Origin: an uncultured virus (IMG/VR IMGVR_UViG_3300036770_002019)
Taxonomy: Duplodnaviria > Heunggongvirae > Uroviricota > Caudoviricetes > Crassvirales
Virus record (IMG/VR): IMGVR_UViG_3300036770_002019
Span: 1 to 64,000 of that record
Direction: 5' to 3' (one strand)
Length of the DNA: 64,000 nucleotides
Below, piece after piece: positions 39,577-59,966 of this stretch; the stretch's first letter is position 1, and each line of letters begins with the position of its first letter. The position numbers were made by a program, and so were the translations under genes. The notes beneath the pieces were generated by a model, which ran no database searches, was not told where the DNA came from, and saw only the letters and a program-made list of their open reading frames with translations.

Positions 39577-39580
39577 TACT

Positions 39581-41653
39581 ATGAGATTAGATTCTATAAG
39601 GTTTAATGCCCCAAGAAGTATGTACGTAGATCCAAGATCCGTACAAGTTAGTAATACTTTAAGAGAAAGGTATGCCTCTAACTTTCAGTCAGTTGACCAA
39701 CTAGAAGCACAACTTGCAGCTTTAAATGTAGCAGATTTTGAAGGAGATCAAAAACTTAAAAAACAGTTATTAGAATCCACTAGATCTAGACTTGAAGCTT
39801 TAGCTGAAAGAGGGGATTATGAAAATCTATCTTTACCTGTGGCGCAAACAGCTCAACAGTTTAGAAAGCAATACACCCCATTAGAACAGAACTTTAATAA
39901 ATACCAAGAGTATGTAGCAGAAGTGAATCGCCGATATAAAGAAGGGGAGATAGATGCAGAAACATATGCAGAAGCTATCCCTGCAGCTAAACATAGCTAT
40001 ACAGGATTACAAGTAGATGAATCTGGGAATATTGATCCTAAAAGCTACTTCTCTGGGATGCAACTTGTAAAAGATGTAGAGATTTTCCCATTAGTTGAAG
40101 AATCTATTAAAGGAATAGTTGCAGAGGAGTTTGGACAGCAAGCTCAATATCTAGGGCAAGGTCCTGATGGTCAATTTAAAGTGTCTACTTCTGATGGAAT
40201 AAGGTTTGTATCTGCTGAAAGAGTACAAGCTATTTATCAAGAAGTATTAGCTAGACCTGATGTACAAGCAGCATTGGCTCAAAAAGCTAAATTAAGAACT
40301 TATAATTTAGACGGTACGCAGATACAAAACACTATCAATACTGACATTCAAACATATCAAGAAGAATTAGCTAAAGCTCAAACTTTGTTAACTACAGGAG
40401 GACTAAATGCTCAAGAAACAACACAGGTACAAAAAACTATGGATCAAATCCAAGGAGAAATAACCAGGTTAAGTACTCTTGGGGAGAGTCGACAAAGAGA
40501 GTATATTCAAGATAGGGAAATTGAAGGAATACTAAGACCGATTACTTCTGCAGTACTTGCTAAGAATGTTTGGCAGCAGAGACCTGCTTCTGAGAATTAT
40601 ACTAGACAGGATTGGGATGAAATGTATAAAATGTACCGTGATGATAGTTTACAAAGATCAAGAGCGGCAGCTGCAGATAAAACCGTTCCAGTAGCTATAG
40701 ATGCTGCAGGAAATGTTGTAATACAACAAGAAGCAGATCCTAATAGTGTTATTGCAAGTATGGATGCAAGTTTAAAAGCTACTAAAGAGTATGAAAGAAT
40801 TGCTAAAGAAGAAAATTTAAGTCCCGAAGCATTAAAAAGTAACGAAGAGGCTAGAATTGCTCAGTACATAAATTACGATCTTGCACAAGAGAGGCTTTTA
40901 GGGGCAGCTCTGGAGGCAGGAGTAGTAGTAGAATTAGCTGCCAATGGCAGACCTAAAAATACATCATGGTGGACAAATCTATCTCCAAAGGAACTATCTA
41001 AAATAGAAAATGTATTTGAAGATGATGAAAGTCCTTACTACTGGCAAAAACCTGTAAATCTATCTATGCAAGTATCTGATAACGAAACTTTTGCCAAATT
41101 CAAAACAGAAGTTATTAGGGCTTTTGAAGGCGCCCCACAATTAGCTGCTCAAATTTTAAATAAAAACGGAGAGTTTGAAACAGGTAAACTTGGAGATCTT
41201 GAAGGTAAAAAGATATCAAATATTGGTATATCTAGAGCCCCCTACCAAGGTATGTCAAGTACTAACCAAATTCAAATTACTTACGAAGATGGGACAGTAG
41301 CTATGGTAGATGCAAGTAAAGTTACATCTCCAGTGTTAGACGAAATACAATCTTCCCCAGTGTTTAAAATGAACTCGGTAACTCAAGCAGTAAGTCTTAA
41401 CCCAAGATTTAATAGTACAACCCCATATGTACTTGCTACTCAATTTAAACTAACTAATGATGCAGGAGTTGAACAGAAAAAGCACGTACAGATTCTTATC
41501 TATCCTGCAGATAGAATAACGGATCAGACATACAAATTAGAGGATACTAGATATCAAGTAGTTATTGATGAGAAACCATCTCCTAAAATGACTCCTGCAG
41601 AATTAGCTACTGAGCTGGAAACTACTGGTCTTGGAACAATCATACTACCATGA
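39581..41653 (+). CDS. Virion cargo or ejection protein
   Basis: 690-aa helical protein with no Cys seen, between the tail genes and the giant proteins. Confidence 0.6.
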   Translation: MRLDSIRFNAPRSMYVDPRSVQVSNTLRERYASNFQSVDQLEAQLAALNVADFEGDQKLKKQLLESTRSRLEALAERGDYENLSLPVAQTAQQFRKQYTPLEQNFNKYQEYVAEVNRRYKEGEIDAETYAEAIPAAKHSYTGLQVDESGNIDPKSYFSGMQLVKDVEIFPLVEESIKGIVAEEFGQQAQYLGQGPDGQFKVSTSDGIRFVSAERVQAIYQEVLARPDVQAALAQKAKLRTYNLDGTQIQNTINTDIQTYQEELAKAQTLLTTGGLNAQETTQVQKTMDQIQGEITRLSTLGESRQREYIQDREIEGILRPITSAVLAKNVWQQRPASENYTRQDWDEMYKMYRDDSLQRSRAAAADKTVPVAIDAAGNVVIQQEADPNSVIASMDASLKATKEYERIAKEENLSPEALKSNEEARIAQYINYDLAQERLLGAALEAGVVVELAANGRPKNTSWWTNLSPKELSKIENVFEDDESPYYWQKPVNLSMQVSDNETFAKFKTEVIRAFEGAPQLAAQILNKNGEFETGKLGDLEGKKISNIGISRAPYQGMSSTNQIQITYEDGTVAMVDASKVTSPVLDEIQSSPVFKMNSVTQAVSLNPRFNSTTPYVLATQFKLTNDAGVEQKKHVQILIYPADRITDQTYKLEDTRYQVVIDEKPSPKMTPAELATELETTGLGTIILP

Positions 41654-44600
41654 GTGAACTACAAACAGAAAATATAAGCTCTTTTACTGGTTTACCAATA
41701 ACTCCTAAAGAAAAGAAACCAGAGGTGAGCGCTTTAACAGGTCTACCAATAACTAATCGTGCGGTTAGAACTGGGGTATTAGGTAATGTTCTTGGGCAAG
41801 CTGCCTCTGGTAATGTTAACTTGTTAGATCAGATGTCTTACAAAGACTATGAGTCTTACAAAAGTTATGGAGTAGCTGTATTGCCTGGTGTAGACTGGGA
41901 TGAGCAAAGAGCTCAAAATCAATGGCGGTTAGAGAAATGGGCTTATGGAGCTACTAAAGCAGGAGTAACTTTTGGCACTTCGCTTTTAGAAAACACGGTA
42001 GGTCTAGTTGTAGGATTAGGATCAATAGCTACTGGTGGAAGTTTTTACGACAACCCATTTGGTAGAGGATTGGATAGTGTAAATGAATACTTTGCAGAAG
42101 CACTCCCAAACTATTATACAAGAGAAGAACAAAACGCTTCTGCTTTAGGTGGGATGATGTATGCAAACTTTTGGGCTGATAAAGTATTAAATGGTGTAGG
42201 ATATGTAGCAGGAAGTATTGCTACTGATGCAGCATTAGCATACCTTACAGGAGGAACAAGTTTAGTTGGGACTGCTGCCAGATACTCACTAAAGTTTGGG
42301 GGAGTTCTATCTAAAGCACAAAAAGCTCAGGCTATATCCAACGTATACAAATTAACTAACTCAGCTCGACAAGGGGCAAAAATAGCAGATGTTTTAACTG
42401 ATGGGGCAAATGCTACAAGTAAACTTAAAAAACTGCGTGGAGCTAGGACAGCTTATGGCAGAGCTGAATCTGGGCTAATATCTGCTATTGGTGAATCTAA
42501 CATTGAAGCAAGACAAGCTAAAAATGAAACTCTGCAAGGACTTAAAGAGCAATATGCGCTGCAGAATGGAATATCAGAAGATGAAATTCCTGCAGAAATA
42601 CTAGCAGGTATGGAAGCTTCTGCTACTGCAGCAGGAAATGTTGTATTTGGTATTAACCTCCCAGTAGTGGGGTTAACCAATATGGTTACTATTGGGAGAA
42701 TGTTAGGCCCAGGCTATAAACGATCTCTTCAAAAAGCTGCTCAAGAACGAGCTAAAAAATCTATTTACAATATTGGTGTTGGGAGAGAAGCTGATGAATT
42801 TGTAGATCTTGGATTGCAAGGTAATGCTGTTAAAAGAGCATTTGTAAAAGGTTCTAGAAAATTCGGAGAGAATTTTACTTCTGCATTATCAGAAGCTGGG
42901 CAAGAAGCTACTCAATTCTTTGCTTCTACGTACGCACAAGATTACTATAAAAACAAGTATTTCGGGAGAGCTGAGGGTATTGATGGAATGATTGACTCCG
43001 CTGTTTATGGGCTAGAGCAAACTTTTGGGACTAAAGAGGGTCTTGAGTCTGCTCTTATTGGGGCAATAGTTGGGGGTGGAACTGTTGGGGTACGTAATCT
43101 TAACAGAATTAGAAAAGGTGAAGAGTCCCTATCCCAAATCAAAACTAAAAATACACAAACAGTATTAGACATAGTTAACAGTACTAATGGTGTAGTAGAT
43201 GCTGTAGAAAGAGCTAAAAGCGCAGATACTTCTAACAAGCTTGCTCAAGCTATGGATAAACTCATAGCCGTAGCATCTGATCCGACAGTAGACAAAGCAA
43301 CTAGAGATAGGGCTCAAAAACAATTTAAAGATTTACAGTATCAACTTGTAGCTAATGAAGCATTTACTCTTCTTGAATTTGGGAGAGAAGATATTCTTAT
43401 GCAGCAATTAGATGATGCTAAAGATTTAGATGATGCTGAGTTTAAAAAAGCTTTTGGGTATGATGTTAACCAACCTCTTCCTGAAGGAGGGAAAGCTGCA
43501 ATTGTAGATAAAATTAAAGATAGGATAAAGGAGCATAAAAAGGTAAAAGGGCAGATAGAGGAACTTGCCCCAAGACTCGAAAGAACTACAGGACTCCCAA
43601 GAACTTTGATGTCTAAAGAACAACAGCAGCAGGAAGATGAACTTATAGAAGCTAACAATTTCTACAGAAAAGCTCTATACAGCAGAGCCTCTGCAATATC
43701 AGGTTACAATACCAGAGCTGCCTCTATGGGGGTAGAAATGCAAAGAATAGCCTCTGAAACAGGGGTATCTTTGAATAGGGGAGCTATGGAAGATTTTGAA
43801 TTCGATCAACTAGAGATTGAATTCGAAGACAATGATGAAGTAAAAGTTCAGGATGGGGGTAAAGTAAAAGGCAAACTTGTAGAGGAACTTCAAAAAGTTT
43901 ATGCAGACCTACAAAAGAAAAACCCACTAGCAGCTAAAGAGTTTGCAACTCTTGCACAAGATTACTTGCATATAGTAGCTGAAAGACAAGCAGCAGTTAA
44001 TTCTTTTGAAGCCTTGACTGATAAGAATGGATTAGAAAAAAGTGAGTACTTACGAAAGCGTCAAGAAGCAATGGAGGCTGAGGCTGCTAAAAAACAAGCA
44101 GAGGCAGAAGCCAAAGTTATTATAGACACAGCTGAAACTGCAAAAGATTTAGAAAAAGTACCTGATAATGCTACAAAGGAGCAGAAGGAATTAGCCAAAG
44201 CTAAAGCCAAAAGACTGCAAAGAGAGGCAGTTAAACGTGCTAAAAAGTACGAAAATAAAACTCTAGATGAACTTAGAGAAATAGATACTGAAGCATTAGC
44301 ACAACTTCCTGATGGGGAAATTGAGTTAGCCGCTCTTGAACTAGCTATTAACAGAGCTAAGAAAAAAGAACAAAGTCAACCAGCAATTGATCAAACTGAA
44401 CCTGAAGCAGTTGAAGAAGCCTTCATCCCTGAAAATGTAGGAGAAGTTCAAATAGTATCAGCTAACAGTAGAGAGTTTGTAATAGCTGGGAAAGTATTCT
44501 ACAATTATGCAGCTGACCCTATATCTGCTATTAACAGAAACGAAGATGGGGTTATAATATCAGTAACTCTTTTAGATGAGAGTTTAAACCCACGTACATT

Positions 44601-47600
44601 TAGGAATGAAGCTACAGTAGATTCTTTAGCTTATGCTATACTTGCAGCACAATACAACACTCCTTCTGACCCAGAGATAACTGAAACAATAGAAGAAGAT
44701 GTTGTTGTACGTACAGAAGCTGTTGCAGAATCAGTAGAAAAACTAGAGCGAAAAGCAAAACTTCCTCAAAATAAAGTTGAGAATTCTCCTGTAGAAGCTA
44801 TTAAAGCTCAACTGTTTGAACTGCATAGGGACTTAGAGGAGATAGTGGAAACTTTAGAAGAAAGACACGCTATACTCAGAGAGCAAAAAGTAAATAAAAA
44901 GAATAGAAGCAGAGACCCTCAGATACAAGAACTTACAAAATTAAAAGCTACTGTAGAAAAGCTTATAGCAGAAAGAAAGCAAGAACTAGAGAAGTTTAAA
45001 CAAGAAGAAGTAAACCTTGAAGATGCAGAGAACAGACTTAATAAACTACGTACTGAGATAAATAAACTCTCCGAAGAAATTGCGGAGCTTGAAGCATTAG
45101 AATCAAGATTAGAAGAAGGGGGAGTTCAAGAACAAGCTCTTGCTAATGTTAAACAGGCTCGCAGAAAAAAACAAGCAACTAAGAATAGACTTAGTCGTGA
45201 ATTAAATAGTATTCAAAATGAAAAAGTTGACTCTACAAGAGATGCAAGACAGGCTGCCGAAAGACTTGCAGGACCAATTAAAGGGCAAGCCAATGAAGGA
45301 GAAGGTGCAAATACTACTCCAGGACCTGGAACAGAGGGGAGAATTGTAGCCTCTAGAACAGATAGAACTGAACAAGCTGCAGAAGAAGTTGAACAAGCAG
45401 AGAGAAACGCTTCTGGGGAGCTTAGAGATCAAGGAGCAGGTCAAGCTCGTGGAGTGAAAGCTGATCAAGTTACTATAACCCCAACCCCTGCAGCTCCATC
45501 AACTCCTGTTTCTACAGATGCTAAAGCTGATATAGAAAGAAGAAAACAAGAATTAGGATTACAAAAAGTATTAAATATTTATCCTCCCGACCAATCTGGA
45601 GGTTATAGAATAAAAATAAAAGGAGATAAATATGAAGTTCTTGTTCAATTTACAGGCAAAAAGTGGGATATTTTTCCTAAACAAAAAAACGGAGATTTTC
45701 AAGCAACAGACCCTGAAACAGGTGATGCTTTATTAATTAATAAAGAACAAAGTAGAAAATTAGTAGAGAAATATTTACCTAAAAAGCTTGTTGATTTAAT
45801 AGAATCAGCTGATTCTATTAAAGGGGTTGATAATCAAATAAAATTTGAACAAGGTGAAATTAAAGAATATGTAGATTTATTTAGAAAAGAATGGTTACAA
45901 GAAAGAATACCTATAGAAAAAGAATTATTAGAATTTTATCAATCTGATAAATTTGACAGAGAAAAAGAAGCTAAAGAAAGAATAATAAAAGCACAACAAG
46001 AAGTAATTGCTAAATACGATGCAGAACTAGCTGCTTTAAAACAACAATCTACTGCAGGTACATTTACACCTACTACTCCGTATGGAACTCCTAAAGGACC
46101 AGAGTTAACTACCGCTTCTACTCAATCTTCTGAGGCAATTCCAGTACAGCAATTACGCCCACAATCAGGATTAGATATTGCTGTACTCCCAAGTAACTTT
46201 GATACCTCTCCTGCATCTCCTGGAAGTGTATATGTAAACCCTGACGGCTCTCTCCCAATGAGTTCTCCTGCATCTCAAACTATAAATGGGGAAGCAGTTA
46301 TAATTGAGGATGGGGCGCTGTACAATTTTGATGATGACTTTGTTGGGAAAACTGTAACATTTGAAGTTAGAGAAGATACTGATTGGGCTAAAGAACAATC
46401 TGATCTTAGCTGGAAAAATGCCCCAATATATGTAGTTCTTGATGGACAAAGAATTGCTCTTTTACAGTCTTATAATGAAGCTAAGAATACAGGTACTGCA
46501 AGAGAGGCTATTTACAGAATGTACAAAGAGGGGAAAACTCCACAAGCAGTTACTACTGGTAGAGGAGCTTTCAGCTTTTTAAATGCTATTAACCCTGATA
46601 CAGGTAAACCTGAGTTTGTAAATCCTTTAGAAGAATTTGAATCTCCTGCTTTTGCAGTTATTAGTAGCGAGGCAAAACAAGTTAGATATATAATCGGTCC
46701 AGGATCTAATCTCCCACAATCAGAGTTAGATAAAATGCAACAAGACTTGGATGAGCAAGCTTCTAAACTAGATAAAGATAAATTTACAGAAGGGCAGGTA
46801 GTTATGGTTGTACGTACCCCAAATGGTAAGTATACAACCTATCCTGTATCTACTAAGAATTTAACTGAAGAGAGTACAAAACTTGCTCTCAAGTTAATGA
46901 GTGAAAACAAAATAGTTGAACTGTTAGACTTAGTTGGGGTTAATGCCGACCCATATAACTGGGCAAGTAGAGCTCAAGGGAAACCATCCTTTTTACATTA
47001 TGTAGAGGCTGGTGACTTTTTTGTATTCCACAGCGATTCTGCAAATCAATTAGTGTCTATTAACTCTACAGAGTTAAGTAAAGCTATGCGTGGGGAGAAA
47101 TTCTCTTTTGGGTATGTTCTTGGACCTACAACTGAGGACAATGATAGATTCGATAAAGATGAAAAAAGAAAAGACCACTCGGCTATTGGTAAGTTTATAG
47201 TTTCAGATCTAACAGCTTTACTTAAAAGAAAGAAGTACCAAGTATCAAAAGAATCTGTAAACGATAAAAATGCTCGTATAGTAAATCCAGAAACTGGGGA
47301 AGCTCAAAACTATCAAGAGTATATTTTTGGGGGAGGTCTTGCACAAGTAGATACTAGAAATAATAAAGGGTCTGTATTCCACGGACTTCAAATTAAATTT
47401 GGGGCAATAGAGTCAGACAGTAAAACAAAAGGAGCTACAACTGCAGCTGCAACTTCTGTACACTCTAAACCTGCAACTACGTCTACTACTGAAGTAGTTA
47501 GATCTGAGGGTAAAAAAGCAGGTAGAGTTAGAAAAACAGAAAAAGTGGTAACTTTGAGTGAGTTAGGAGCTCAACCATCTGATGAAATAAAAGCACAGTT

Positions 47601-47760
47601 AATGGCTGAAATGCAAGGAGTTACCCCACAAAACTTAGCAGATCTTGTAGGTAAATCCGCACCAGTTGCTCCTACAGCTGGGGGAATTAAAGTACTTTCT
47701 AAAAATGATTTGAACTCTCTGATAGATTTTGGAGATGAACTTAACAATATCTGTAAATAA
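41650..47760 (+). CDS. Giant ejected protein 1 (RNAP-associated cargo)
   Basis: 2036 aa; N-terminal hydrophobic Gly-rich helices (SEAGQEATQ, ALIGAIVGGG); long coiled coils; directly precedes the virion RNAP. Confidence 0.75.
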   Translation: MSELQTENISSFTGLPITPKEKKPEVSALTGLPITNRAVRTGVLGNVLGQAASGNVNLLDQMSYKDYESYKSYGVAVLPGVDWDEQRAQNQWRLEKWAYGATKAGVTFGTSLLENTVGLVVGLGSIATGGSFYDNPFGRGLDSVNEYFAEALPNYYTREEQNASALGGMMYANFWADKVLNGVGYVAGSIATDAALAYLTGGTSLVGTAARYSLKFGGVLSKAQKAQAISNVYKLTNSARQGAKIADVLTDGANATSKLKKLRGARTAYGRAESGLISAIGESNIEARQAKNETLQGLKEQYALQNGISEDEIPAEILAGMEASATAAGNVVFGINLPVVGLTNMVTIGRMLGPGYKRSLQKAAQERAKKSIYNIGVGREADEFVDLGLQGNAVKRAFVKGSRKFGENFTSALSEAGQEATQFFASTYAQDYYKNKYFGRAEGIDGMIDSAVYGLEQTFGTKEGLESALIGAIVGGGTVGVRNLNRIRKGEESLSQIKTKNTQTVLDIVNSTNGVVDAVERAKSADTSNKLAQAMDKLIAVASDPTVDKATRDRAQKQFKDLQYQLVANEAFTLLEFGREDILMQQLDDAKDLDDAEFKKAFGYDVNQPLPEGGKAAIVDKIKDRIKEHKKVKGQIEELAPRLERTTGLPRTLMSKEQQQQEDELIEANNFYRKALYSRASAISGYNTRAASMGVEMQRIASETGVSLNRGAMEDFEFDQLEIEFEDNDEVKVQDGGKVKGKLVEELQKVYADLQKKNPLAAKEFATLAQDYLHIVAERQAAVNSFEALTDKNGLEKSEYLRKRQEAMEAEAAKKQAEAEAKVIIDTAETAKDLEKVPDNATKEQKELAKAKAKRLQREAVKRAKKYENKTLDELREIDTEALAQLPDGEIELAALELAINRAKKKEQSQPAIDQTEPEAVEEAFIPENVGEVQIVSANSREFVIAGKVFYNYAADPISAINRNEDGVIISVTLLDESLNPRTFRNEATVDSLAYAILAAQYNTPSDPEITETIEEDVVVRTEAVAESVEKLERKAKLPQNKVENSPVEAIKAQLFELHRDLEEIVETLEERHAILREQKVNKKNRSRDPQIQELTKLKATVEKLIAERKQELEKFKQEEVNLEDAENRLNKLRTEINKLSEEIAELEALESRLEEGGVQEQALANVKQARRKKQATKNRLSRELNSIQNEKVDSTRDARQAAERLAGPIKGQANEGEGANTTPGPGTEGRIVASRTDRTEQAAEEVEQAERNASGELRDQGAGQARGVKADQVTITPTPAAPSTPVSTDAKADIERRKQELGLQKVLNIYPPDQSGGYRIKIKGDKYEVLVQFTGKKWDIFPKQKNGDFQATDPETGDALLINKEQSRKLVEKYLPKKLVDLIESADSIKGVDNQIKFEQGEIKEYVDLFRKEWLQERIPIEKELLEFYQSDKFDREKEAKERIIKAQQEVIAKYDAELAALKQQSTAGTFTPTTPYGTPKGPELTTASTQSSEAIPVQQLRPQSGLDIAVLPSNFDTSPASPGSVYVNPDGSLPMSSPASQTINGEAVIIEDGALYNFDDDFVGKTVTFEVREDTDWAKEQSDLSWKNAPIYVVLDGQRIALLQSYNEAKNTGTAREAIYRMYKEGKTPQAVTTGRGAFSFLNAINPDTGKPEFVNPLEEFESPAFAVISSEAKQVRYIIGPGSNLPQSELDKMQQDLDEQASKLDKDKFTEGQVVMVVRTPNGKYTTYPVSTKNLTEESTKLALKLMSENKIVELLDLVGVNADPYNWASRAQGKPSFLHYVEAGDFFVFHSDSANQLVSINSTELSKAMRGEKFSFGYVLGPTTEDNDRFDKDEKRKDHSAIGKFIVSDLTALLKRKKYQVSKESVNDKNARIVNPETGEAQNYQEYIFGGGLAQVDTRNNKGSVFHGLQIKFGAIESDSKTKGATTAAATSVHSKPATTSTTEVVRSEGKKAGRVRKTEKVVTLSELGAQPSDEIKAQLMAEMQGVTPQNLADLVGKSAPVAPTAGGIKVLSKNDLNSLIDFGDELNNICK

Positions 47761-47766
47761 AAACTG

Positions 47767-50700: not shown

Positions 50701-53700
50701 ATGGCAGAAGAATACATGCCTAATGAAGTAGAGGGTACAGACGCACAGGGGTTGATTTCAATAGATTTCTATAGAGATCTAATGCAAGGTAAAGGAGAGT
50801 GGACAATCAACGAAGAGAAAGCTTACGATGCATACAAACAAGCACCCGAAGGAAGTAAGCAATTTGTATATCAAACAGGCTTTACCCCACAAGGATTTAA
50901 ACCAGGAGATGCAGTACCTTTTTATCCGCAAAAACCTTACTATGAGTACAATGAACTTGTAGGTGGGGTTGTTACGACTGACTCACATAAAAACTCTTAT
51001 CACTTACTATTAGAAGGGGAAACAAAAAGTAACCCTGTAAAAGACAATCTAAGACGGAGAATGGAGGCTGTTGGAGAGTATGCAGGCTTGCAACGTATTG
51101 GGGTAGCTAACTTTGTAACAGCAAAGAAGATTAAGATCAACAAGGTTAATACTTTGACTGATAAAGTTGGTGGGCTATCTAATGTAGGAACTAATACAGT
51201 TAACAGTAGAGGACTAAGATTCCCTCAAGAGATCCCAAAAAAGAAAGCTTCTACTACAATGTTTAACCGTCAGGTTAGAAAGAATACAATATCGAACATT
51301 GATCCTAATCACACGTACACATTAAATGCGGGGTTAGATACTGAAATAAAAATATCAGGCCAAGAAATGCTTGATATGTATCACGCCGCTATAGAACGTA
51401 AAATAGAACTAGAATTTAAGCAAGTAGAGAAAGAGCTTGGGGTAGATAAAATACAGAAAGCTTTAGCTAAACAAGATGTTGAAGAGTATAATGCAGCTTT
51501 AACTTCATTTCTACGTAAGCTTAGAGATAAGATTAAAGACAATAACATTGAAAGGGATCTCCCAACTAACTATGATGCTGGGTTAAGAATTGAGTTAGAT
51601 GAAGCTGGGAGACCTCAATACCAAATTCCACTAGACTTCCCTATATACTTTGAAAAGTATGAAAGAGTACTCCTTGGGATGGCTGTTAATGCTGCATTTA
51701 AACAGAAAGTTCCAGGAATGGAGGCTGTGCAAGTTGCAGAAATTGGGGGATATGCTGAATCTGGGGAGTTAAACTTTTACGAAATCCAAAAAGATAAATC
51801 AGGTACCCCAAGAGTAGTTCACATGGAGGTAATGATTCGTGAGGATATAGCTCGTAAATTTGGGTTAGAGCCTGGACAAGACTTAGACTCACTCCCAGAA
51901 GAACTAAGACGTATTATAGGGTATCGTATCCCCAACCAAGGAAAATCTTCTACAGTAATAATGAAGATTAAACGAATCCTACCAGCTAATTATGCAAAAG
52001 CTGTTATAGTTCCTGCTCAATTAACTAAACTCACAGGATCTGACTTCGATATTGATAAGATGTTCTTGATGTTCCCAGAAGTTAGACAAACAGATGCTGG
52101 ACCAGTTAAAGTTCGTCCTCCTTATGAGGGGATATTAGGAAAAGCTGTCCAGCCTGTAGCGGAATCAATTAATATTTATGCAGGAGATAATCAAAATGCA
52201 GATTTAAGTAATTTCGCAATTCGTCCTTTTGTTGTGCAGGGCGTGGAATACAAATCTGTAGAACAATATTTCCAATCTAAAAAGTTTGAAATTGCCGAAG
52301 TTCTTGAATTTGACACACAAGAAGCTGCTGATAAAGTCTTTGCAATAGCTGATAAGATTATGGAGACATCTTCTGGAGCGCAGTTAAAAAGACTAGGAAA
52401 CACAAGAATACCAGGCGTAACTTTTAACGAAGAAAGTTGGAATGTATATGGAGAAGAAGCCATGTATGTGGGTATTTATGAAAGTTTTAATCAGAACCCA
52501 GAAGCAAGAAAACGTTTATTACAAACAGGCAATGCAGAACTAACCCACAAACAAGATAAATCTAAGTGGGGGAAAAAGTTCCCTGAAATACTAACTAGAG
52601 TTAGGGAAGAACTTAAAAAAGAATATCCGCAAGATGTACCTATAAAACCAACCCAACCTTCACAACAAGATTTAAGCACTCCTACTGCTATCAAACCAGG
52701 AGTAGAAAAATTATTTGATTCTAATCCTGAATTAGCTAATCAAGTATATGAAGCTTTGGGGTTTGATAATTTTACTAATCAGGAAAAAGAAACCTTAATA
52801 GCACAATTAAGAAATCCATTATTTGATTTAGTAAGAGGTACTGAATTGTATAATAAATATAAAGGAGAAACTATACCTTACGGCTATTCAGAAAATTCTT
52901 GGAAATTACTTATTTCTGGAATAACTGAATCTAAACTAGATTTAAATAAAATTTTATTAGGTTATAAACAAAGACTTTTAGAAGAAGAAAACACACCTAT
53001 TAGAGAAACAGGTATTGACGAAAAAACAGGATTACCAAAAGGATTTAATCCTTCTACTGGTGCATTTGAAGGAGGATTTGGAGAAATTTCAGAAAAAGAA
53101 AATGCAATAAAAACTTCTAAAAATAAAATAAATGTTTTAAATAAATTTATACAACAAAAACAACAAGCTCTACAACTATACTCTCAATACTTAGATACAG
53201 GTAAACAAGATATAGAAGGATTTAAAGATTTTGCTAAATCTCCACTACAACAAGATATAAGCATAGATAAAATAACAGATATATCTATCCTAAACAATAT
53301 CATTTTAGATGTAGTAGAAGCTGTTCAAGCTAATCTACTCCACGTAAATGAATCTATGGCTCCATTAGATGAATCTACTCTACCTAGATTAGTTGCAGAT
53401 ATTGAAGCTAAATTCCCAGAATTACAAGCCCCACTAGAGTTTGCTAGTGTAGACATTGAGACAGAAATGGGGATACGAAATACTATAGGTAGAGCTATGC
53501 GTGGATTGTGGGCTAACTTTATAGCTGGTCATGCTGTAGCTGCTTTTGGGGATATTGTAGTAAATGCTAACTACGAATTAAATTTAGATGGGAAAGCATA
53601 CCCAAAACTTATAGGAGTTGCAGGGCAAGAAGTTGCAGAGTTCGACAGAGGAGTTCCTATTAACATGATAGGTTCTAGATACTTATCTGCCGCAGTAGAT

Positions 53701-55401
53701 GCTGCTAAAAAACCTTATCAGTATACACTTAATGATAGAACTTTTACTTACCCTATAGAAGCTTATTGGATGGCCTTCTCTGGGGATACAAAAGCGCTGC
53801 ATGATTTCTTGAATGTCCCAATCATAAGACAGTTTACTGATTTGTTTTATACAAAGTATGGAGCCAAACCTATACTAATGGAGAATGCACTATTAGATGT
53901 TATCCCTAAAATGTATAAAGACAGCTTGAAAGAAGATAGGTTACGTCCAGCTACCTCAATGACAAGAGAAGAACTTGCAAACCCACAAGATCTTCCTCCT
54001 GCTAGACAGTACGAGCTGCTATTAAACATGTTAAAGTTTAGAGAGGCTGGTAGATCTATGACTCAAATGTTTAAGGTTATTGCCCCAGATTCTATGGATG
54101 GTATGAACAGCATAGATTCTATTAAATCATACAGAAGTAGACAGAATCAGTTTAACCCTAACATTACAAGCCCAGAAAATCAAATCTTCATAAACCCAAA
54201 TGCTCCTTTAGAGCCTGTAGTAGATCAATTTATAGGACAAGTAAGTGTATATGGAATGCAGAGAGGGTTTTCTAATCTCTTTTTGGATATTGCAGATATG
54301 GCTGCTAAGATATTCCCCATGACTGTATCCCCAGCTATGGATAATCTGGACATGAGAATAATGGATTTAACTGGGAATACACAATTAAATCCTGAAGCGC
54401 ATAGAGATATTAGAAGAGCAGCTATGCTAAGTGTATTTGCTCAAGAAGAATCCCCATTAAGAGAATTCTTCAGTGATACGCACCTAAAACTAAACTATCT
54501 AAACAAGGATAGTAACTTGGTTACAAAGCTCAGGGACTTGAAAGTAAAGTATCCTAAACTTGCAGAAAACTTGTTTATTAGAAAGTTTGTGGAGAACAAT
54601 GATAATGACCTCCCAGAAACTAAAGTGTTCTTGTTAGATTTCGATACATCTTATCAAATGACTAGGTTTGAAAAAGATGCAGTAACTTTAGCAGCATACA
54701 GATTACTTAAACGACCAGAAGAAGTTGTTGGGAAAGATGCTTCGATAGAAGATAGACAATCTATAATAAACTTAGCTGAAGATCTGTTGATGAACACATT
54801 AATAGTTCATGGGTTTAAACAAACGACTGGTTCATACCAAGATCTTATACCTGTAACATTCTTTACAGATAATAGGTTTGCACGTTACAACAATCCTGGG
54901 GAAAGACTTGGATCCCCAGTTAAATACTTTAGACAGCAGATGACTTCTATGTATACCATAGATACTTTTGATAACTTTGCAGTAGATTTTATACGCCAAA
55001 GCTTTCAAACGTCTCCTGGTGGATACACATTAGTCCAAGGTATACGAAAGAAAGCAACACCTAATGAAATCGTTTTAAGTGATAAAGACAAGATTAGAAT
55101 GTACAGAAATGGGTACCCAATTCCTTTTATTACAGTGACAAACTCTACAACTAACGAAACATTCTTGTACGCATCTGGTCATATTTTAACTTCAGGAACT
55201 GTAGAAGGAAAGTATGTAAAAGTTAATCCTTTAGGGGTAGACAGTAAATTAATAGAAGCAACAAACCCTGATAAGTCTGTAATCAATGAACAAGGATTAC
55301 CACTATCATCTATTGTTATGACTTCTACAACTACAGGAATTTCAACTAATGCAGGCTCAATAGCCTCTACAGAGAACCAACAATCTATAATCTGCAAATA
55401 A
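47767..55401 (+). CDS. Virion-packaged DNA-dependent RNA polymerase (crAss-like double-psi beta-barrel type) with inserted domains
   Basis: TDAQG, GYRIPNQG, catalytic GSDFDIDK (Asp at 52042), AAVDAAK; 2544 aa. Confidence 0.92.
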   Translation: MATCPNRNLKAWKDLEAVQGESIALAIWDRFDGRPPEFFYSTPLKEGTVITKGFDVQTRFTEEQNNAILDSIIYMLMEQKKQEGFKIEEQIGNKSTKGSIPNFFLQQAYENENGTAVSLEVAESIWGKEQAYETAVRENLPEETQNALYDEWVNAMEESDVYESEHPAREAFLDIYEFWNGGIITTGKTENEVKSDIALGNIDIVGWRELLSNRIKEFGYSISNVEQEVEFASDEDILERIYSKASMEEDPSKKLSGRMKELLATIPNRQLNFLGLASYLPADQIYKELATTFAGLQNFPEMLAQVETLALHKPQYEAVSEFMKGLNKKDAAAFSRIFAQSANEFLLIRVEAKTPAGDVVRIFNPNENRIERSIATTWKNGAVESNIAKPKAIYKVTEEGLEIDQNKAKAIAENWLLVRRGIAGVDSVSSTQGEISKPVQALTDMLWNMGIYLGDPEIKQETANNLQQVVNTGIFVVEKGRRQKLTGRAAYNYIANKEGKSLARLVSQFVVLSPDGTKVEKTLRTVSTTMYESQGSTVRHLASFAPLFFEMRGDSFVNGKGKQIYPINLRHHLGQVFETLGSSTEDKTKMMDMYREDKFFAPVEGKNEFDSILFRLLQSPEFTNEFRAFDLDALKDVTIPDGTVDYENFSNTDSLRTRLIAYINSGNRSTGLIAIPIQSDRKKFTFFPFVRTKNLAGTRKGTFGITGMTKNDIILGLIVQDMMRIAHGRGILSNQVTEDGLPNPPKDLPETYKKNLSSPKSMQFDGTLVGSEGNIPIVTDARLESKTGEYFISDYIEEFLTDPEELRDIEPEVFNEIQTKINVMVERANEYFLNQAKILDTKIKEQGITLPTEAREFGDRMSLLENYVFDEFLGRNEISKILRGSRAHVKDIQTFYKRVGHATTPGMEVALASDLAINGLQEVDGISNYGMPDTFIEATFNDIKLNLDEEMRTRAIERAEAIRDGLIEAGYDADFAQSMAEEYMPNEVEGTDAQGLISIDFYRDLMQGKGEWTINEEKAYDAYKQAPEGSKQFVYQTGFTPQGFKPGDAVPFYPQKPYYEYNELVGGVVTTDSHKNSYHLLLEGETKSNPVKDNLRRRMEAVGEYAGLQRIGVANFVTAKKIKINKVNTLTDKVGGLSNVGTNTVNSRGLRFPQEIPKKKASTTMFNRQVRKNTISNIDPNHTYTLNAGLDTEIKISGQEMLDMYHAAIERKIELEFKQVEKELGVDKIQKALAKQDVEEYNAALTSFLRKLRDKIKDNNIERDLPTNYDAGLRIELDEAGRPQYQIPLDFPIYFEKYERVLLGMAVNAAFKQKVPGMEAVQVAEIGGYAESGELNFYEIQKDKSGTPRVVHMEVMIREDIARKFGLEPGQDLDSLPEELRRIIGYRIPNQGKSSTVIMKIKRILPANYAKAVIVPAQLTKLTGSDFDIDKMFLMFPEVRQTDAGPVKVRPPYEGILGKAVQPVAESINIYAGDNQNADLSNFAIRPFVVQGVEYKSVEQYFQSKKFEIAEVLEFDTQEAADKVFAIADKIMETSSGAQLKRLGNTRIPGVTFNEESWNVYGEEAMYVGIYESFNQNPEARKRLLQTGNAELTHKQDKSKWGKKFPEILTRVREELKKEYPQDVPIKPTQPSQQDLSTPTAIKPGVEKLFDSNPELANQVYEALGFDNFTNQEKETLIAQLRNPLFDLVRGTELYNKYKGETIPYGYSENSWKLLISGITESKLDLNKILLGYKQRLLEEENTPIRETGIDEKTGLPKGFNPSTGAFEGGFGEISEKENAIKTSKNKINVLNKFIQQKQQALQLYSQYLDTGKQDIEGFKDFAKSPLQQDISIDKITDISILNNIILDVVEAVQANLLHVNESMAPLDESTLPRLVADIEAKFPELQAPLEFASVDIETEMGIRNTIGRAMRGLWANFIAGHAVAAFGDIVVNANYELNLDGKAYPKLIGVAGQEVAEFDRGVPINMIGSRYLSAAVDAAKKPYQYTLNDRTFTYPIEAYWMAFSGDTKALHDFLNVPIIRQFTDLFYTKYGAKPILMENALLDVIPKMYKDSLKEDRLRPATSMTREELANPQDLPPARQYELLLNMLKFREAGRSMTQMFKVIAPDSMDGMNSIDSIKSYRSRQNQFNPNITSPENQIFINPNAPLEPVVDQFIGQVSVYGMQRGFSNLFLDIADMAAKIFPMTVSPAMDNLDMRIMDLTGNTQLNPEAHRDIRRAAMLSVFAQEESPLREFFSDTHLKLNYLNKDSNLVTKLRDLKVKYPKLAENLFIRKFVENNDNDLPETKVFLLDFDTSYQMTRFEKDAVTLAAYRLLKRPEEVVGKDASIEDRQSIINLAEDLLMNTLIVHGFKQTTGSYQDLIPVTFFTDNRFARYNNPGERLGSPVKYFRQQMTSMYTIDTFDNFAVDFIRQSFQTSPGGYTLVQGIRKKATPNEIVLSDKDKIRMYRNGYPIPFITVTNSTTNETFLYASGHILTSGTVEGKYVKVNPLGVDSKLIEATNPDKSVINEQGLPLSSIVMTSTTTGISTNAGSIASTENQQSIICK
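52168..52620 (+). other. NADAR (YbiA-like) domain inserted in-frame in the virion RNAP
   Basis: LSNFAIRPF...YKSVEQYFQSKK...LKRLG...W...M...SFNQNP..RKRLLQTG.AELTH...W...L..VREEL. Confidence 0.8.
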
Positions 55402-58400
55402 TGAGCTGCGAATATAAAATAAACGGGAAAACAGACCCAACCCATACAGAGTTATTCAACTATGTTGCGAATAACAGAGAGAGATCTGCAGACGAAGTAT
55501 ACAGAATACTGAGAGAAGCAGGCATAGCAATTAAAAAAAATGATGCTGGAGGGAATCCTCGTATGTACTTAGTTATGGGTACAGATAGCTCTGTTAGCTA
55601 CAAACGAGCTCAAGACATAAATTTAGGAGCTAGATTATTTTTTGGAGTGCCTCAAAACGAAAGACTTTTAGAGTACACTAATCTAGGTACTAGAAGTAAC
55701 AAATTTACTGGGGTAAATACTCTGTTTGGGTTGAGGATTAATGAGTCCGTTTTAAAAAATATGGAGTCACCTCAACAGCAGTATGAAAATATTGCAGAGA
55801 TACTTGAAGAGGAGGCTAGAAGAGTTATCTTAGACACTCCATCCCCATTTAGGGATGATTATTTATTATCGGAGGCTGCTCTTCAAGCTAATAATTCTGA
55901 AAGATCTAAGTTTTCTAAGATGGCTCAAAATAGTGTAGATAACACTGTTAAGCAAATTACAAAACTAAAACAGGCATTTAAGAATGCTGGTATTGATGTA
56001 GAGGTAAGATTAGATGGGGATATCGAAGAAAAGGGGGTTTTACTTCCAGTAAGTGAAGACAACCCAAATCCAGTAATACTTCTTAACCCAAACGAAATTA
56101 CAGAAGATACTGTATACCATGAGTTTGCTCACTTGTTCATAGATTTATTGGGGTATAATCACCCACTTGTACAACAAGCTATGGAAGAGCTTAGAGGTAG
56201 TGAACTTTACCAAGAAGTATTAGAGTACTACCCCGAGCTGGAAGGAGATACTGAAAGATTAGATAAAGAAGTACTTGCAACAGCAATAGGATTAGAAGGG
56301 GCACGAATGGAGAAGAAGGCCCCTAACAAATTACAATCCATTATAAATAGAATATTCAGAGCTATAGGAAAGTTACTTGGGGTATCTCAAAACGCAGTTT
56401 CTCAGTTAGCTGTAAATATGATTGTGAATGAAATAGATGTTACTCAATTTAGAGGGGCACTATCTTCATATGCTCAAATGAGTAAAGCTGAACGCAATGT
56501 AAAAAACATTGTAGAAACTCTTAGGGAGAAAACAGAAACAGCTATTCTACAATTAGAGTCTCTCCCATTTAAAAACGAAGCCGCTATTAACGAACTCAAA
56601 CTCCAGCAATCTAAACTAGAGACGGTTACAGAAGTAGAGGGTTTGATTGACTTTGTTAACTACACAACTAGATTAGCTGCTAGAGCTGAAACAACTTTTG
56701 AAAACATCTTAACTGAGTATTCTCCTAATCCTGCACTAATTACTGGGGAAAAAAGATTACAAATGCTGCAACAATTGCATCAAGTACATCAATGGTTGCA
56801 GGCATTTCACAATAACACTAGCAAAAATGGGTCTACACTTACAGCTATCAAGTTAGAGCTACGTAAAAAAACAGATGCTGTAGAAGCTTCTGGTGGGAAT
56901 ATAGCAGAGCTAACAGCTTTTAAAACCAGACTGGCAGATGCTATTGATGTATTAGATGAGTTAGACGAAAAGTATGCTAAAGTGGGTATCCCAATTCTAG
57001 CAGATCTTCTATTAGAATATAACAAACCGCAGATCGACGATAAAATTAATGCAGCAATAGAAAAAGTCCGCACTACTGGTAGAGAATTTGGGTTGGAGAG
57101 AAAGACCCCTGAATTTAGAGAACTGCAAAGACAGCTTAAAGCAGGAGAAATAACTAAACAAGAGTTTGATGCTGCAAAGATTGAATTGAATATAAAACAT
57201 CTACAAGCCCGTAAAATTGGGAGAGAAGCTATTATTCAAGAGCTTACTGAGAGTCAAAAGAATAAAAGCTGGTTATCATATATGATGGATCCAGTTATAT
57301 ACTCATCTCAACCAGCTATACAGTTATTTGCAGGACACGTTAAAGCAGCACTATACAGAGCTGCAGATAAGTTTAGAGAAACTAAATATGAACTCAGAGA
57401 CATCTACAGAGAGTATGCAGAGTCAAGACCTGGGACGGAATTTGACGATGCAGCTTTCAACGAACCTGTTCTTGAAACTTACACATATGAAGTTATAGAT
57501 TGGGAGGAAACTAAGAAGACTGGGGAACATGTAACTAAGAGAATGAATCTTTTAAGTTTTGTTCAACCTTATGATGTTGGGAAGTATTACCAGGCAGAAA
57601 CAGATGCAATTACATCTTTAGCTAAAAAATATAATCGACCTACAGACCCAGACGAATTAAAAGCTTGGACTAAATCTAAAAAAGCAACTCAATATTATGC
57701 TGAGCTTTCGCAATGGTATGCAGAAAACTCTGTAATGGCAGAAGATGCTCAAGAGAGATATGATACTTTAATAAGTAAAAGAAAAGCTCTCCAAGTAGAA
57801 TTAGAACAAGCTTTACAGGTAGGGAATTCTAATAAAGTTGGGTTGTTAGAAGCAGAGATAGCTTCTTTATCTACTCAAATTGGGGCAGCATATGACTTTA
57901 GAGCTAAACAATTTAAAGGTTCATTCGCTCGACCAAATGATAAGTACAGATCTGAAAAGTACGAAAAGCTTGTAAAAGATAAATCGTCTGTAGAATATAG
58001 ATACTATCAAGCGTTATTAAATGAGTACAAGAAATCTCAAAAGAAATTAGGACGTACAAACCAAGTTAGAAATAGTTGGAATGACTTTTCTTACATACTC
58101 CCAACAGTTAGAAAATCTACCCTTAATAAAACAATAGAGGGGGCAAGTTCTATAGATGTATCTCAAGTTGTATCTGCAGGTAAAGATATGATTAAAGATA
58201 CGTATGAAATCCTGGAAACAGATACTGACTACGGGGTACTTGTAGGATTAAATGGGGAAAGATTACAAACTGTACCTGTATTCTTTACAAACCCTGTAGA
58301 TGAAAAAGATGTAAGTAGGGATGCTCTTGGGAGCATACTTAAGTTTACACATATGTCCAACATGTTTGAAGAAAAATCTAAGATACTTGGGTCTGTAGAA

Positions 58401-59966
58401 ATGATGAGAAGTGTTATTGAACAGCGAGGAACTTTAGAGCAAGATGAATCAGGTAACCCAGCGTTTAATAAAGTTACAGCCAGACTTAAAAATATGGCCA
58501 AGCGTGCTGTAACACAAGACCCTAAAAAAGACCCAGATAATCAATTTAGACATTTAAGTGAATTCATAGACTCTGTATTCTATGGGGAAAAAGATCTTAA
58601 AAATCAATTAAATGCATCAATAAGATTATTTGGGAAAGAGATAGACATATCTGGGAATAAACTTTCTCAAACAGCAACAACTCTAACTGCAGCTACGTCA
58701 TTGATTGGGAACAAGCTGCAAGCAGTTAACCAGATAATAATGGATAATGAACGTTTGATTGAAGAAGGGATTGCAGGAGAGTACTTTGGGAAATTAGATT
58801 TAGCTTGGGCAAAAGGAGAGTACTATAAAAATCTACTGACTTTAAAGACAGTAAAAGATGCAGGTAGTTTTGCTAAGGATAATAAAATGCTTCAAGCTGC
58901 AGAGCTATTAGATGCATTATCTGATTTAATAGACAGCAATGGGGATAGAGTTACAGGAGCTCGTCTTAAAAAGTATCTGTCCTTTGATACAGGATTCTTT
59001 ATGCAGAACATGGCAGAACATGAAACTGCTTTAACACGAATGCTTGCTGTAGCTAGAGGATACAAAGGAAAGCTAAAAGATGCTGCAGGTAATGTAATAT
59101 TGAACGAAAAGAACGAACCTGCAGATTTATACGACCTGCTTGTAAAAGATAAAAAAGGAATGTTAACTCTGGACCCAAGAGTAGCTAATATTACTTTGTA
59201 CGATGTAAGGAGTACATTAGCAGGATTACAAAAGAAATCCAATCAGCTTAAAGGATCAGTAGATAGGTCTATGGCTGAAAGAAGAGCTGCAGGAAAGATG
59301 GTTACTTTGTTTAGAAGATTCTTAGCCCCAGGTTTTAGAAGACATTGGGGTCATGGAGGGTTAGCTAACGTAGCTTTCTTACATGTAGATACAGAAACAG
59401 GAATGCTGTCTGAAGGAGCGTATTGGACTACATTCAAATACATTCGAGATCAAGTACAAAGTATAGCTACAAAACAACCAGCTAATGTTTGGAATTTATT
59501 AACTGCAGATGAAAAAGCTAACGTACGTAGAACTGCTGCACAATCTACATTCTTTTTAAGTTCTATGATTTTAAGTGGATTGTTAATGGGGGCAGCAGCA
59601 GATGAGGACGATGAGGAAAAAGCTGCTCAATACATTTTCTGGGCGTACCAAGCTAGAAGACTGCAGACTGAACTTGGGGCATTCTTATCCCCAAAAGAAG
59701 TGTACAACATTACTAAATCCCCATCAGCTGCTTCTAGGCCTATAATGAATATATATGATCTAATGACACATATTGTTTTCAAAGAGATACCGTATGCTTT
59801 AGGTGCAGATGGATTAGAAAAAGATATTTTCTACCAACGCAAAAGCGGGGAATTTGAAAAAGGGGATAGAAAAGTAATTAAGAAGATCAGATCTGTTATC
59901 CCAGTATGGAGCGGGTTAAACAAAAACGCTGAAGAGGCTATTAAGTGGTTTGATCTTAATGGGTAA
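55401..59966 (+). CDS. Giant ejected protein 3 with a zincin-like metallopeptidase motif
   Basis: VILLNP...DTVYHEFAHLF (His at 56118)...KEVLATAIG; C-terminal hydrophobic helix; 1521 aa. Confidence 0.75.
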   Translation: MSCEYKINGKTDPTHTELFNYVANNRERSADEVYRILREAGIAIKKNDAGGNPRMYLVMGTDSSVSYKRAQDINLGARLFFGVPQNERLLEYTNLGTRSNKFTGVNTLFGLRINESVLKNMESPQQQYENIAEILEEEARRVILDTPSPFRDDYLLSEAALQANNSERSKFSKMAQNSVDNTVKQITKLKQAFKNAGIDVEVRLDGDIEEKGVLLPVSEDNPNPVILLNPNEITEDTVYHEFAHLFIDLLGYNHPLVQQAMEELRGSELYQEVLEYYPELEGDTERLDKEVLATAIGLEGARMEKKAPNKLQSIINRIFRAIGKLLGVSQNAVSQLAVNMIVNEIDVTQFRGALSSYAQMSKAERNVKNIVETLREKTETAILQLESLPFKNEAAINELKLQQSKLETVTEVEGLIDFVNYTTRLAARAETTFENILTEYSPNPALITGEKRLQMLQQLHQVHQWLQAFHNNTSKNGSTLTAIKLELRKKTDAVEASGGNIAELTAFKTRLADAIDVLDELDEKYAKVGIPILADLLLEYNKPQIDDKINAAIEKVRTTGREFGLERKTPEFRELQRQLKAGEITKQEFDAAKIELNIKHLQARKIGREAIIQELTESQKNKSWLSYMMDPVIYSSQPAIQLFAGHVKAALYRAADKFRETKYELRDIYREYAESRPGTEFDDAAFNEPVLETYTYEVIDWEETKKTGEHVTKRMNLLSFVQPYDVGKYYQAETDAITSLAKKYNRPTDPDELKAWTKSKKATQYYAELSQWYAENSVMAEDAQERYDTLISKRKALQVELEQALQVGNSNKVGLLEAEIASLSTQIGAAYDFRAKQFKGSFARPNDKYRSEKYEKLVKDKSSVEYRYYQALLNEYKKSQKKLGRTNQVRNSWNDFSYILPTVRKSTLNKTIEGASSIDVSQVVSAGKDMIKDTYEILETDTDYGVLVGLNGERLQTVPVFFTNPVDEKDVSRDALGSILKFTHMSNMFEEKSKILGSVEMMRSVIEQRGTLEQDESGNPAFNKVTARLKNMAKRAVTQDPKKDPDNQFRHLSEFIDSVFYGEKDLKNQLNASIRLFGKEIDISGNKLSQTATTLTAATSLIGNKLQAVNQIIMDNERLIEEGIAGEYFGKLDLAWAKGEYYKNLLTLKTVKDAGSFAKDNKMLQAAELLDALSDLIDSNGDRVTGARLKKYLSFDTGFFMQNMAEHETALTRMLAVARGYKGKLKDAAGNVILNEKNEPADLYDLLVKDKKGMLTLDPRVANITLYDVRSTLAGLQKKSNQLKGSVDRSMAERRAAGKMVTLFRRFLAPGFRRHWGHGGLANVAFLHVDTETGMLSEGAYWTTFKYIRDQVQSIATKQPANVWNLLTADEKANVRRTAAQSTFFLSSMILSGLLMGAAADEDDEEKAAQYIFWAYQARRLQTELGAFLSPKEVYNITKSPSAASRPIMNIYDLMTHIVFKEIPYALGADGLEKDIFYQRKSGEFEKGDRKVIKKIRSVIPVWSGLNKNAEEAIKWFDLNG

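Follow-up and report, generated by a model that had tools for sequence, protein, structure and literature searches.

Paired terminal cysteines at the junctions of the giant RNA polymerase cargo proteins of crAss-like phages suggest a head-to-tail chain

Introduction

Among the phages of the human gut, the crAss-like phages are the most abundant. The means by which podophages package megadalton amounts of internal protein, set its order and deliver it are an open question. The present analysis concerns a block of three giant genes in an uncultured member of the Crassvirales (IMG/VR record IMGVR_UViG_3300036770_002019, positions 1 to 64,000 of which form the 64,000-nucleotide window analysed here). 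The products of these three adjacent open reading frames (ORFs), designated P1, P2 and P3, are most likely the RNA polymerase (RNAP) cargo block of a crAss-like phage, packed in the particle and injected into the host. An earlier note, made by reading the translations by eye, had drawn attention to the placement of the few cysteines in these proteins at adjoining termini only, and had proposed that disulfides or metal bridges link P1 to P2 to P3. Here we follow this pattern through the window, its relatives and the reference phages, and consider what kind of link would account for it.

Results

Cysteine content of P1, P2 and P3

Together the three proteins (Table 1) comprise 6,101 residues, in which the computed count over the three adjacent ORFs finds four Cys in total. 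P1 has a single Cys at residue 2035 of 2036 (codon TGT, 47752-47754), P2 has two, at residue 4 (47776-47778) and at residue 2543 of 2544 (55393), and P3 has one at residue 3 (55407-55409). The facing ends read ...NNICK and MATCPN... at the first junction and ...SIICK and MSCEY... at the second, whereas the outer ends, the N-terminus of P1 and the C-terminus of P3, have none. This agrees to the codon with the reading by eye, including the ICK-stop with which both donor ends finish, and no overlooked internal Cys came to light in any of the three proteins. Four Cys placed at random among 6101 residues would all fall within four residues of the four inner termini with a probability of 4.7e-11, a figure that is post hoc, although the pattern is borne out by the relatives. 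The donor Cys codons are unlike at the two junctions (TGT against TGC). P1 and P2 share a reading frame and are separated by TAA AAA CTG (47758-47766), followed by ATG, while P2 and P3 overlap by one base (TAATG); the sequence ATCTGYAAATAA is common to both junctions. Readthrough of the one stop at 47758-47766 would recreate a fused P1-P2 protein.

Terminal cysteine pairs across the Crassvirales

A scan of IMG/VR with P2 provided 78 loci (cited by handles such as L007), the best segments of which are less than 30% identical to it save for a few short ones. We called ORFs of at least 900 amino acids (aa) with translation table 11, using table 15 for 20 TAG-recoded loci that otherwise lacked a long ORF. 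With phi14:2 and the window added, this gave a set of 71 junctions, unique by their 15-residue tails, some of which are mutual close relatives. Upstream ORFs (935 aa in L007 and L011, 909 aa in L020, 1675 and 960 aa in the window), a frameshift artefact in L038 and ORF pairs more than 700 nucleotides (nt) apart were removed before counting, and the TTG start of the downstream gene in L047 was set by hand, as the ORF caller was ATG-only.

A donor Cys at the end of the upstream protein and an acceptor Cys at the start of the downstream one are both present in 70 of the 71 unique junctions between giant ORFs. The co-occurrence of a C-terminal Cys with an N-terminal Cys in the next gene, anticipated in the earlier note, is thus found across the Crassvirales. 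The donor Cys lies one to seven residues from the upstream C-terminus (13, 31, 13, 7, 2, 3 and 1 junctions, respectively), with Cys-Lys as the donor end in 28 of the set, and the acceptor Cys occupies positions 2 to 7 in 71/71 (1, 26, 26, 13, 4 and 1, respectively). Each tail carries one Cys, and no CxxC occurs. As a control, we used 164 other complete ORFs from the same loci, in which Cys makes up 1.22% of residues and is found at positions 2-8 in 27 and within the last eight residues in 9; the joint chance of a donor and an acceptor Cys expected from these controls is about 0.9%. Away from their ends, the giants contain 0.058% Cys (171 unique giant ORFs).

The outer ends of the block behave accordingly in most lineages. 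First-protein N-termini lack Cys in 33 of the 38 that are unique and complete. The five that carry one comprise L014, L027 and L032, in which the donor gene is on the opposite strand, L024, where the acceptor Cys is present and the contig ends 473 nt upstream, leaving the donor out of view, and L025, whose Cys8 probably reflects a start placed too early, within the preceding ORF. Last-protein C-termini are without Cys in 41/42 unique cases, the remaining one (L056) belonging to an RNAP ORF after which the locus stops within the following gene. The terminal Cys rule also holds in TAG-recoded phages, in phi14:2 and in the crAssphage-genus record LMMB. Terminal Cys pairing is a real, strongly conserved feature of these junctions and not an artefact.

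Two loci only appear to depart from this pattern. An RNAP ORF in L040 that ends ...SCYEQ without a P3 belongs to the fused L015 type but is interrupted by a frameshift, and was dropped from the counts, and the Cys-less 928/960 split in L038 is a frameshift within one gene. These frameshifts that mimic splits (L040 6900-8500 and L038 8450-8800) may be assembly errors or real disruptions. Charge complementarity of the facing tails is unsupported, the mean net charge being +0.03 over the last 12 residues of the donor and +0.80 over the first 12 of the acceptor.

Covariation of cysteines with gene fusion and splitting

In eight loci (L001-L006, L008 and L015) a single, fully fused giant of 4,025-5,346 aa is colinear with P1-P2-P3 and contains zero Cys. 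Where P1 and P2 are fused (L007, L010, L017, L020, L037, L039, L046, L048, L049 and L052), the fusion has exactly one Cys, which is C-terminal, and the protein that follows it in those same loci has a Cys at its N-terminus. L009 is split at the first junction only and L007 and L010 at the second junction only, each with Cys only there, and L020 encodes a fourth protein with Cys at both ends and shows three linked junctions; in Cys-poor lineages, the block has two Cys for every junction. The half-fused forms assign each donor C-terminus to the N-terminus that follows, and argue against P1-P3 linking and RNAP cyclisation as the rule (L009, L007 and L010).

On a maximum-likelihood tree built from 54 rows and 636 columns of the RNAP core, with some long branches and with support from the Shimodaira-Hasegawa-like approximate likelihood ratio test (SH-aLRT) only, the split or fused state changes at least six times at the first site (50 rows) and at least three times at the second (53 rows). 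Independent pairs, five for the first site and three for the second, are all concordant with the Cys rule. All four states are found in the clade of the window: fused (L001, L004, L006 and L008), split at the first site only (L009), at the second only (L007) and at both (the window itself). The 'CPN' domain that forms the acceptor was sought within the fused giants by regular expression and by a hidden Markov model (HMM) of 29 N-termini, with no internal match at a domain expect value (E) <0.01; the same HMM gave zero matches of any kind in the fully fused proteins, and in BLAST comparisons the junction regions of split and fused forms do not align.

Independence from gene order

In crAss001, gp47 (2341 aa) has its only Cys at position -3, counting from the C-terminus, and is encoded on the strand opposite gp50 and gp49; gp50 has Cys5, one internal Cys and a Cys at -9, and gp49 has Cys5 only. 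As in crAss001, the donor gene lies on the opposite strand and the pairs are kept in DAC15, L014, L027 and L032. The Cys of the phi14:2 proteins are the last residue of gp67, residues 3 and -2 of gp66 and residue 3 of gp65, with none elsewhere, and in LMMB, which belongs to the crAssphage genus (Carjivirus), the ...SCM end of a 1957-aa protein is followed by a protein that begins MSC. A DNA-level junction signal, suggested by the shared ATCTGYAAATAA and the shared frame of P1 and P2, was rejected because the pairs persist with the donor gene on the other strand. In addition, the intergenic gaps at junctions range from -8 to 541 nt and 17/71 are in frame, where about a third is expected, giving no enrichment.

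Anatomy of the joint

For 'CPN'-type junctions, we aligned the final 120 donor residues and the initial 160 acceptor residues in sets of 25 rows, the donor set (A1) including five code-15 rows. Cys is the sole invariant column in these alignments, with a mean column identity of 14% for the donor and 21% for the acceptor; C4 of the acceptor is invariant among the 25 relatives, N6 and L15 are nearly so, and no conserved His or Asp partner stands beside the Cys on either side. In the 20-row alignments used for folding, C4, N6 and P36 of the acceptor are invariant and the donor (A3) has no invariant column. The donor tends towards acidic-hydrophobic-x-x-hydrophobic-x-x-Cys followed by 0-6 residues, and a frequent form of the acceptor is M-x(1-4)-C-P-N followed by two helices. 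An 'M..CPN....(E)WK.L' mini-domain heads the RNAP in the window (47767-47901), but in many other clades it heads the post-RNAP protein (for example L012 from 13927, L039 from 14914 and L062 from 12889); this sequence distribution suggests that the N-terminal CPN mini-domain is a portable acceptor module.

For the last 120 aa of P1, AlphaFold2 predicts a helix at 102-119 (approximately residues 2018-2035) after a disordered linker, with the Cys at the helix end; the mean predicted local distance difference test score (pLDDT) is 63.5, and the last blocks score 82 and 74. The head of P2 is modelled as a small helical domain (block pLDDT 84-95 over residues 1-40), with Cys4 in the ordered stretch before the first helix, and a fold search of this acceptor model against the PDB gave no match at E up to 0.001. 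When the P1 tail was co-folded with the RNAP head, each with its own 20-row alignment, the pair was graded 'weak support', scoring 0.53 against 0.00 for the best control, with a partner pLDDT of at least 43 and a contact agreement between runs of at least 34%. The mark for this grade was reached by 58/80 solved complexes and 2/110 mismatches in a benchmark in which only 7 of the 80 solved complexes, yet both of the mismatches that passed, reached it with a score of 0.60 or lower.

Assignment of the cargo block and layout of the window

By tblastn, P2 is approximately 24% identical over residues 860-1440 to the RNAPs of crAss001 (E 5e-24) and phi14:2 (E 5e-14), and chain A of PDB 6VR4 (phi14:2 gp66) matches residues 1100-1440 (E 9.9e-16). 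The catalytic motif has the context DFDIDKMF at residue 1426, and the same motif is present in the window and in 79/79 of the relatives listed; a megablast search of the RNAP gene against the phage collection gave no match. P1 is matched by phrog_32390 over residues 77-512 and is colinear with the N-terminal region of the giant proteins that L001, L004, L006 and L015 encode in fused form, and P3 is 31-33% identical over approximately 1400 aa to the C-terminal part of fused giants. The HEFAH sequence of P3 was looked at as a zincin-like protease motif, and Pfam and PHROGs gave no family match for P3. Across the three proteins Pfam (E up to 0.01) reported only NADAR, Phage_30_3 and a sub-threshold GvpG, with no intein or Hint domain. 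The NADAR domain (PF08719, E 6e-14, also matching YbiA, 2b3w) lies shortly after the RNAP catalytic motif, is absent at the corresponding place in the fused L001, L004 and L006, and may counter ADP-ribosylating defences from within the injected RNAP.

The block resembles gp67-gp66-gp65 of phi14:2 and gp47/gp50/gp49 of crAss001 in RNAP homology, the DFDID motif, a neighbourhood after structural genes and terminal Cys; the window RNAP differs from both in its low identity and in the NADAR insert. Presence of such cargo proteins in the virion, and their ejection, are known for crAss001 and phi14:2 only, from proteomics. PHROG matches in the structural module of the window identify a terminase, a portal, a major head protein and a muzzle-like virion structural protein (31667-36694), and the cargo block sits downstream of all four genes.

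Table 1 Coordinates of the cargo block and associated features in the window
Feature	Position	Strand	Basis
P1, 2036 aa, RNAP-associated cargo protein (phi14:2 gp67 / crAss001 gp47 counterpart)	41650..47760	+	ORF calling, Cys count, phrog_32390, colinearity
P2, virion RNA polymerase, 2544 aa	47767..55401	+	tblastn, DFDID motif, PDB 6VR4 match
P3, 1521 aa, RNAP-associated protein (phi14:2 gp65 / crAss001 gp49 counterpart)	55401..59966	+	ORF calling, identity to fused giants
P1 donor tail, predicted C-terminal helix and Cys2035	47701..47757	+	AlphaFold2, alignments
P2 acceptor N-terminal domain, M-A-T-C-P-N then two short helices	47767..47901	+	alignment, structure model
RNAP catalytic motif DFDID, P2 residues 1426-1430	52042..52056	+	motif search
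NADAR domain inside RNAP, P2 residues 1476-1603; outside the Cys link	52192..52575	+	Pfam PF08719
P2 donor Cys2543 codon TGC, penultimate residue (...IICK)	55393..55395	+	Cys count
HEFAH motif, P3 residues 240-244	56118-56132	+	motif search
Two Cys-free cargo-like proteins upstream, 960 aa and 690 aa; not chain members	36694..41653	+	Cys count, PHROGs

The 960-aa Cys-free cargo-like protein upstream of the block (36694-39576) contains an endolysin-like segment at residues 95-199 (phrog_10341, E 1.7e-07), which would fit a cell-wall-cutting ejected protein. Two ORFs of the structural module are the opposite of the cargo block in being Cys-rich (31 Cys in 1056 aa at 20360-23530 and 12 Cys in 150 aa at 19904-20356); PHROGs gave no match for the 1056-aa ORF.

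Discussion

The reading that we favour is that a disulfide joins the two chains at each junction and so restores a single connected thread from the products of split genes; we give this inferred bond a probability of roughly two in three. P1 Cys2035 would pair with RNAP Cys4, and RNAP Cys2543 with P3 Cys3, as disulfides in the assembled particle, such that three chains become one covalent thread of approximately 6,100 residues, the post-translational equivalent of the giant polyprotein of close relatives. The short C-terminal helix of the upstream protein would dock on the N-terminal helical domain of the next and bring the thiols together, and with all other Cys purged, as in other ejected phage proteins, no wrong disulfide would be possible. 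Because each Cys lies no more than seven residues from a chain end, the joint would leave only very short side stubs and could be threaded, unfolded, through a narrow channel. Under this disulfide model the three proteins would be packaged stoichiometrically, ejection would be ordered and in single file, and the chains would be separated by reduction in the cytoplasm. The fused 4,600-5,350-aa giants (L001, L004, L006, L008 and L015) have the same three parts in the same order as P1-P2-P3 and are joined by peptide bonds without Cys, whereas the chain in the window would close after translation and could open by reduction. More tentatively, the block may be a redox-cleavable polyprotein, built from portable Cys-helix and Cys-domain modules, loaded and ejected as a single thread, from which cytoplasmic reduction both frees and activates the RNAP; this fuller scheme is possible rather than probable.

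A structural precedent comes from cyanopodophage A4 (Anabaena phage A-4L), for which cryo-electron microscopy of the mature particle revealed, for the pre-ejectosome proteins gp27 and gp26, the C-terminal helix of gp27 inserted in gp26 with a Cys1715-Cys5 disulfide (PNAS 2025; PMC12002296). In the A-4L record, gp27 (1717 aa) and gp26 (1114 aa) are encoded by adjacent genes and each has a single Cys (1715 and 5, respectively). A4 and the window thus share adjacent genes for ejected internal proteins that are Cys-poor and have facing terminal Cys. They differ in that A4 has a single link, joining two proteins, and lacks an RNA polymerase, whereas the window would have two links in a three-protein chain, and the excerpted A4 account describes no fused forms and no rule across relatives. 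Near-total Cys suppression in a giant virion RNA polymerase and its partners is also shared with N4-like phages, in which it extends to the ejection proteins N4 gp50 and DEV gp71-gp73 and is ascribed to passage through the oxidising periplasm (PMC11445570). There the suppression is complete and the excerpts report no terminal pairs, whereas in the window the facing termini keep Cys. T7 was rejected as a head-to-tail pair system: gp14 has a single Cys at position 2 (L086 1229-1819) and no Cys occurs in gp15 or in residues 1-1135 of gp16, which is suppression with no facing pairs.

Several observations weigh against the disulfide. Disulfides have been observed for no crAss-like phage cargo so far; assembly takes place in the reducing cytoplasm, and for gut phages in anaerobic surroundings, which leaves oxidation of the thiols unaccounted for, and disulfides in purified virions may form after lysis. 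The best blastp match between A4 gp26-gp29 and the crAss block has an E of 0.11, phmmer gives nothing at E <1, and because there is no sequence similarity the A4 precedent is an analogy of mechanism, not of family. At the first site of L042, the single exception among the 71 junctions, the donor Cys is 32 residues from the end. Taken one at a time, the sign tests on the independent pairs do not reach significance (p 0.06 and 0.25 for the first and second sites), and the trait is to some extent circular, since a Cys can be terminal only where a protein ends. Modelling of the terminal peptides as a complex, a check suggested in the earlier note, gave the weak co-fold score at the first junction, and the partner's own fold is uncertain. 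The annotated start of crAss002 gp33 (L085 11903-12000) puts its Cys at residue 35, and the protein fits the rule only with translation from Met33, where Met33-Ser-Cys forms the usual acceptor head; the deposited start may be 32 codons too far upstream. Finally, an 861-aa protein of LMMB (L083 889-3474, Cys at -2) and crAss002 gp30 (L085 1208-2881, Cys at -8), both outside the block and upstream of the RNAP genes, have a C-terminal Cys with no N-terminal Cys in the protein that follows. Terminal Cys are therefore not always paired, and these two may be homodimer links or chance.

The facing tails might instead make a non-covalent contact, or hold a metal ion (Zn, Fe or Cu) between them, with the Cys as ligands or packing residues. 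This would accord with the conservation of a donor helix and an acceptor domain around the Cys, with a co-fold that beats its controls without any notion of a bond, and with the reducing state of the cytoplasm. However, a pair of thiolates by itself is poorly suited to hold a structural metal, each tail offers a single Cys, CxxC motifs and conserved His or Asp partners are absent, and the solved A4 joint is a disulfide (PMC12002296), which makes such a contact unlikely. Of the linkage proposed in the earlier note, the head-to-tail pairing is strongly supported by covariation, rearranged genomes and the A4 geometry; the choice of disulfide over metal bridge is favoured by the single Cys per tail without CxxC, and is decided only indirectly.

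It is distinctly improbable that the terminal Cys act only after ejection, either through periplasmic oxidation that locks a trans-envelope assembly or as redox sensors that switch the polymerase on. Ejected proteins do traverse the oxidising periplasm invoked for N4-like Cys suppression (PMC11445570), and the phi14:2 gp66 crystals captured a self-inhibited state, with no explanation yet for how it is activated (10.1101/2020.03.07.982082), but a role of this kind leaves the zero Cys of the fused forms unaccounted for, and the A4 bond is already present in mature particles that have yet to eject (PMC12002296). A link between homodimers, or from a cargo protein to portal or capsid rather than to its neighbour, could draw on the unpaired C-terminal Cys of other crAss cargo-like proteins described above and on the disulfide-linked dimers of crAss001 gp57 (PMC10172136). 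We regard it as very unlikely, given that donor and acceptor Cys are gained and lost jointly at each site, that the outer termini have no Cys and that the Cys number in Cys-poor lineages follows the number of junctions.

A covalent join other than a disulfide, such as thioester-mediated ligation that rebuilds a true polyprotein, would suit the evolutionary interchangeability of fused and split forms, and the Cys chemistry is reminiscent of the first steps of protein splicing. Such ligation is nevertheless highly improbable: Pfam finds no intein or Hint domain in the three proteins, the acceptor Cys is never residue 1 (1-6 residues precede it), the stubs beyond the donor Cys are only 0-6 residues, and crAss001 virion proteins are reported at their individual predicted masses (PMC10172136). 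Split inteins and protein trans-splicing were rejected on the same grounds, with no Hint halves flanking the junction (Pfam, E up to 0.01) and short stubs. Chance, or a by-product of a nucleotide signal for translational coupling or read-through, can be dismissed despite the shared ATCTGYAAATAA and the single TAA that separates P1 and P2 in one frame, given the pairs kept on opposite strands, the variable gaps without frame enrichment, the differing donor codons and the random expectation of 4.7e-11.

For crAss001, Bayfield et al. (2023; PMC10172136) identified gp45, gp46, gp47, gp49 and gp50 as cargo, found disulfides in tail and capsid proteins of the virion, acquired mass spectra of reduced and non-reduced virions and considered that extrusion order in crassviruses is probably set by packing and mutual interactions. 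Fused crAss-like polyproteins have been proposed to be cleaved (Drobysheva et al., 10.1101/2020.03.07.982082); where that preprint has a fused polyprotein cut, our reading of the window has split forms re-joined. The searched text of PMC10172136 and of the phi14:2 preprint makes no mention of the cysteines of these cargo proteins; the main text of PMC10172136 lacks the word cysteine altogether, and Cys is nowhere mentioned in the preprint. In addition, full-text literature searches, with supplementary tables outside their scope, returned no description of terminal Cys in crAss-like cargo proteins or of the split and fused rule. The pattern thus appears undescribed for crAss-like phages, with A4 as the one solved case of its kind. 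The earlier note's expectation of novelty holds for this group and for the split and fused rule, and falls short in that the A4 disulfide (PMC12002296) and N4-like Cys suppression (PMC11445570) are already in print.

The idea can be tested in the cultured phages phi14:2, crAss001 and DAC15, and perhaps in the existing reduced and non-reduced spectra of crAss001. If true, a covalent, reducible tether would account in concrete terms for loading at 1:1:1, for exit in order and for a timed release of the polymerase with which infection starts. The tether would also make sense of the division of the same three parts among one, two, three or four genes in different lineages. In the fuller scheme, evolution could cut or fuse the giant cargo genes freely, with the particle still loading and ejecting one thread of more than 6,000 residues.

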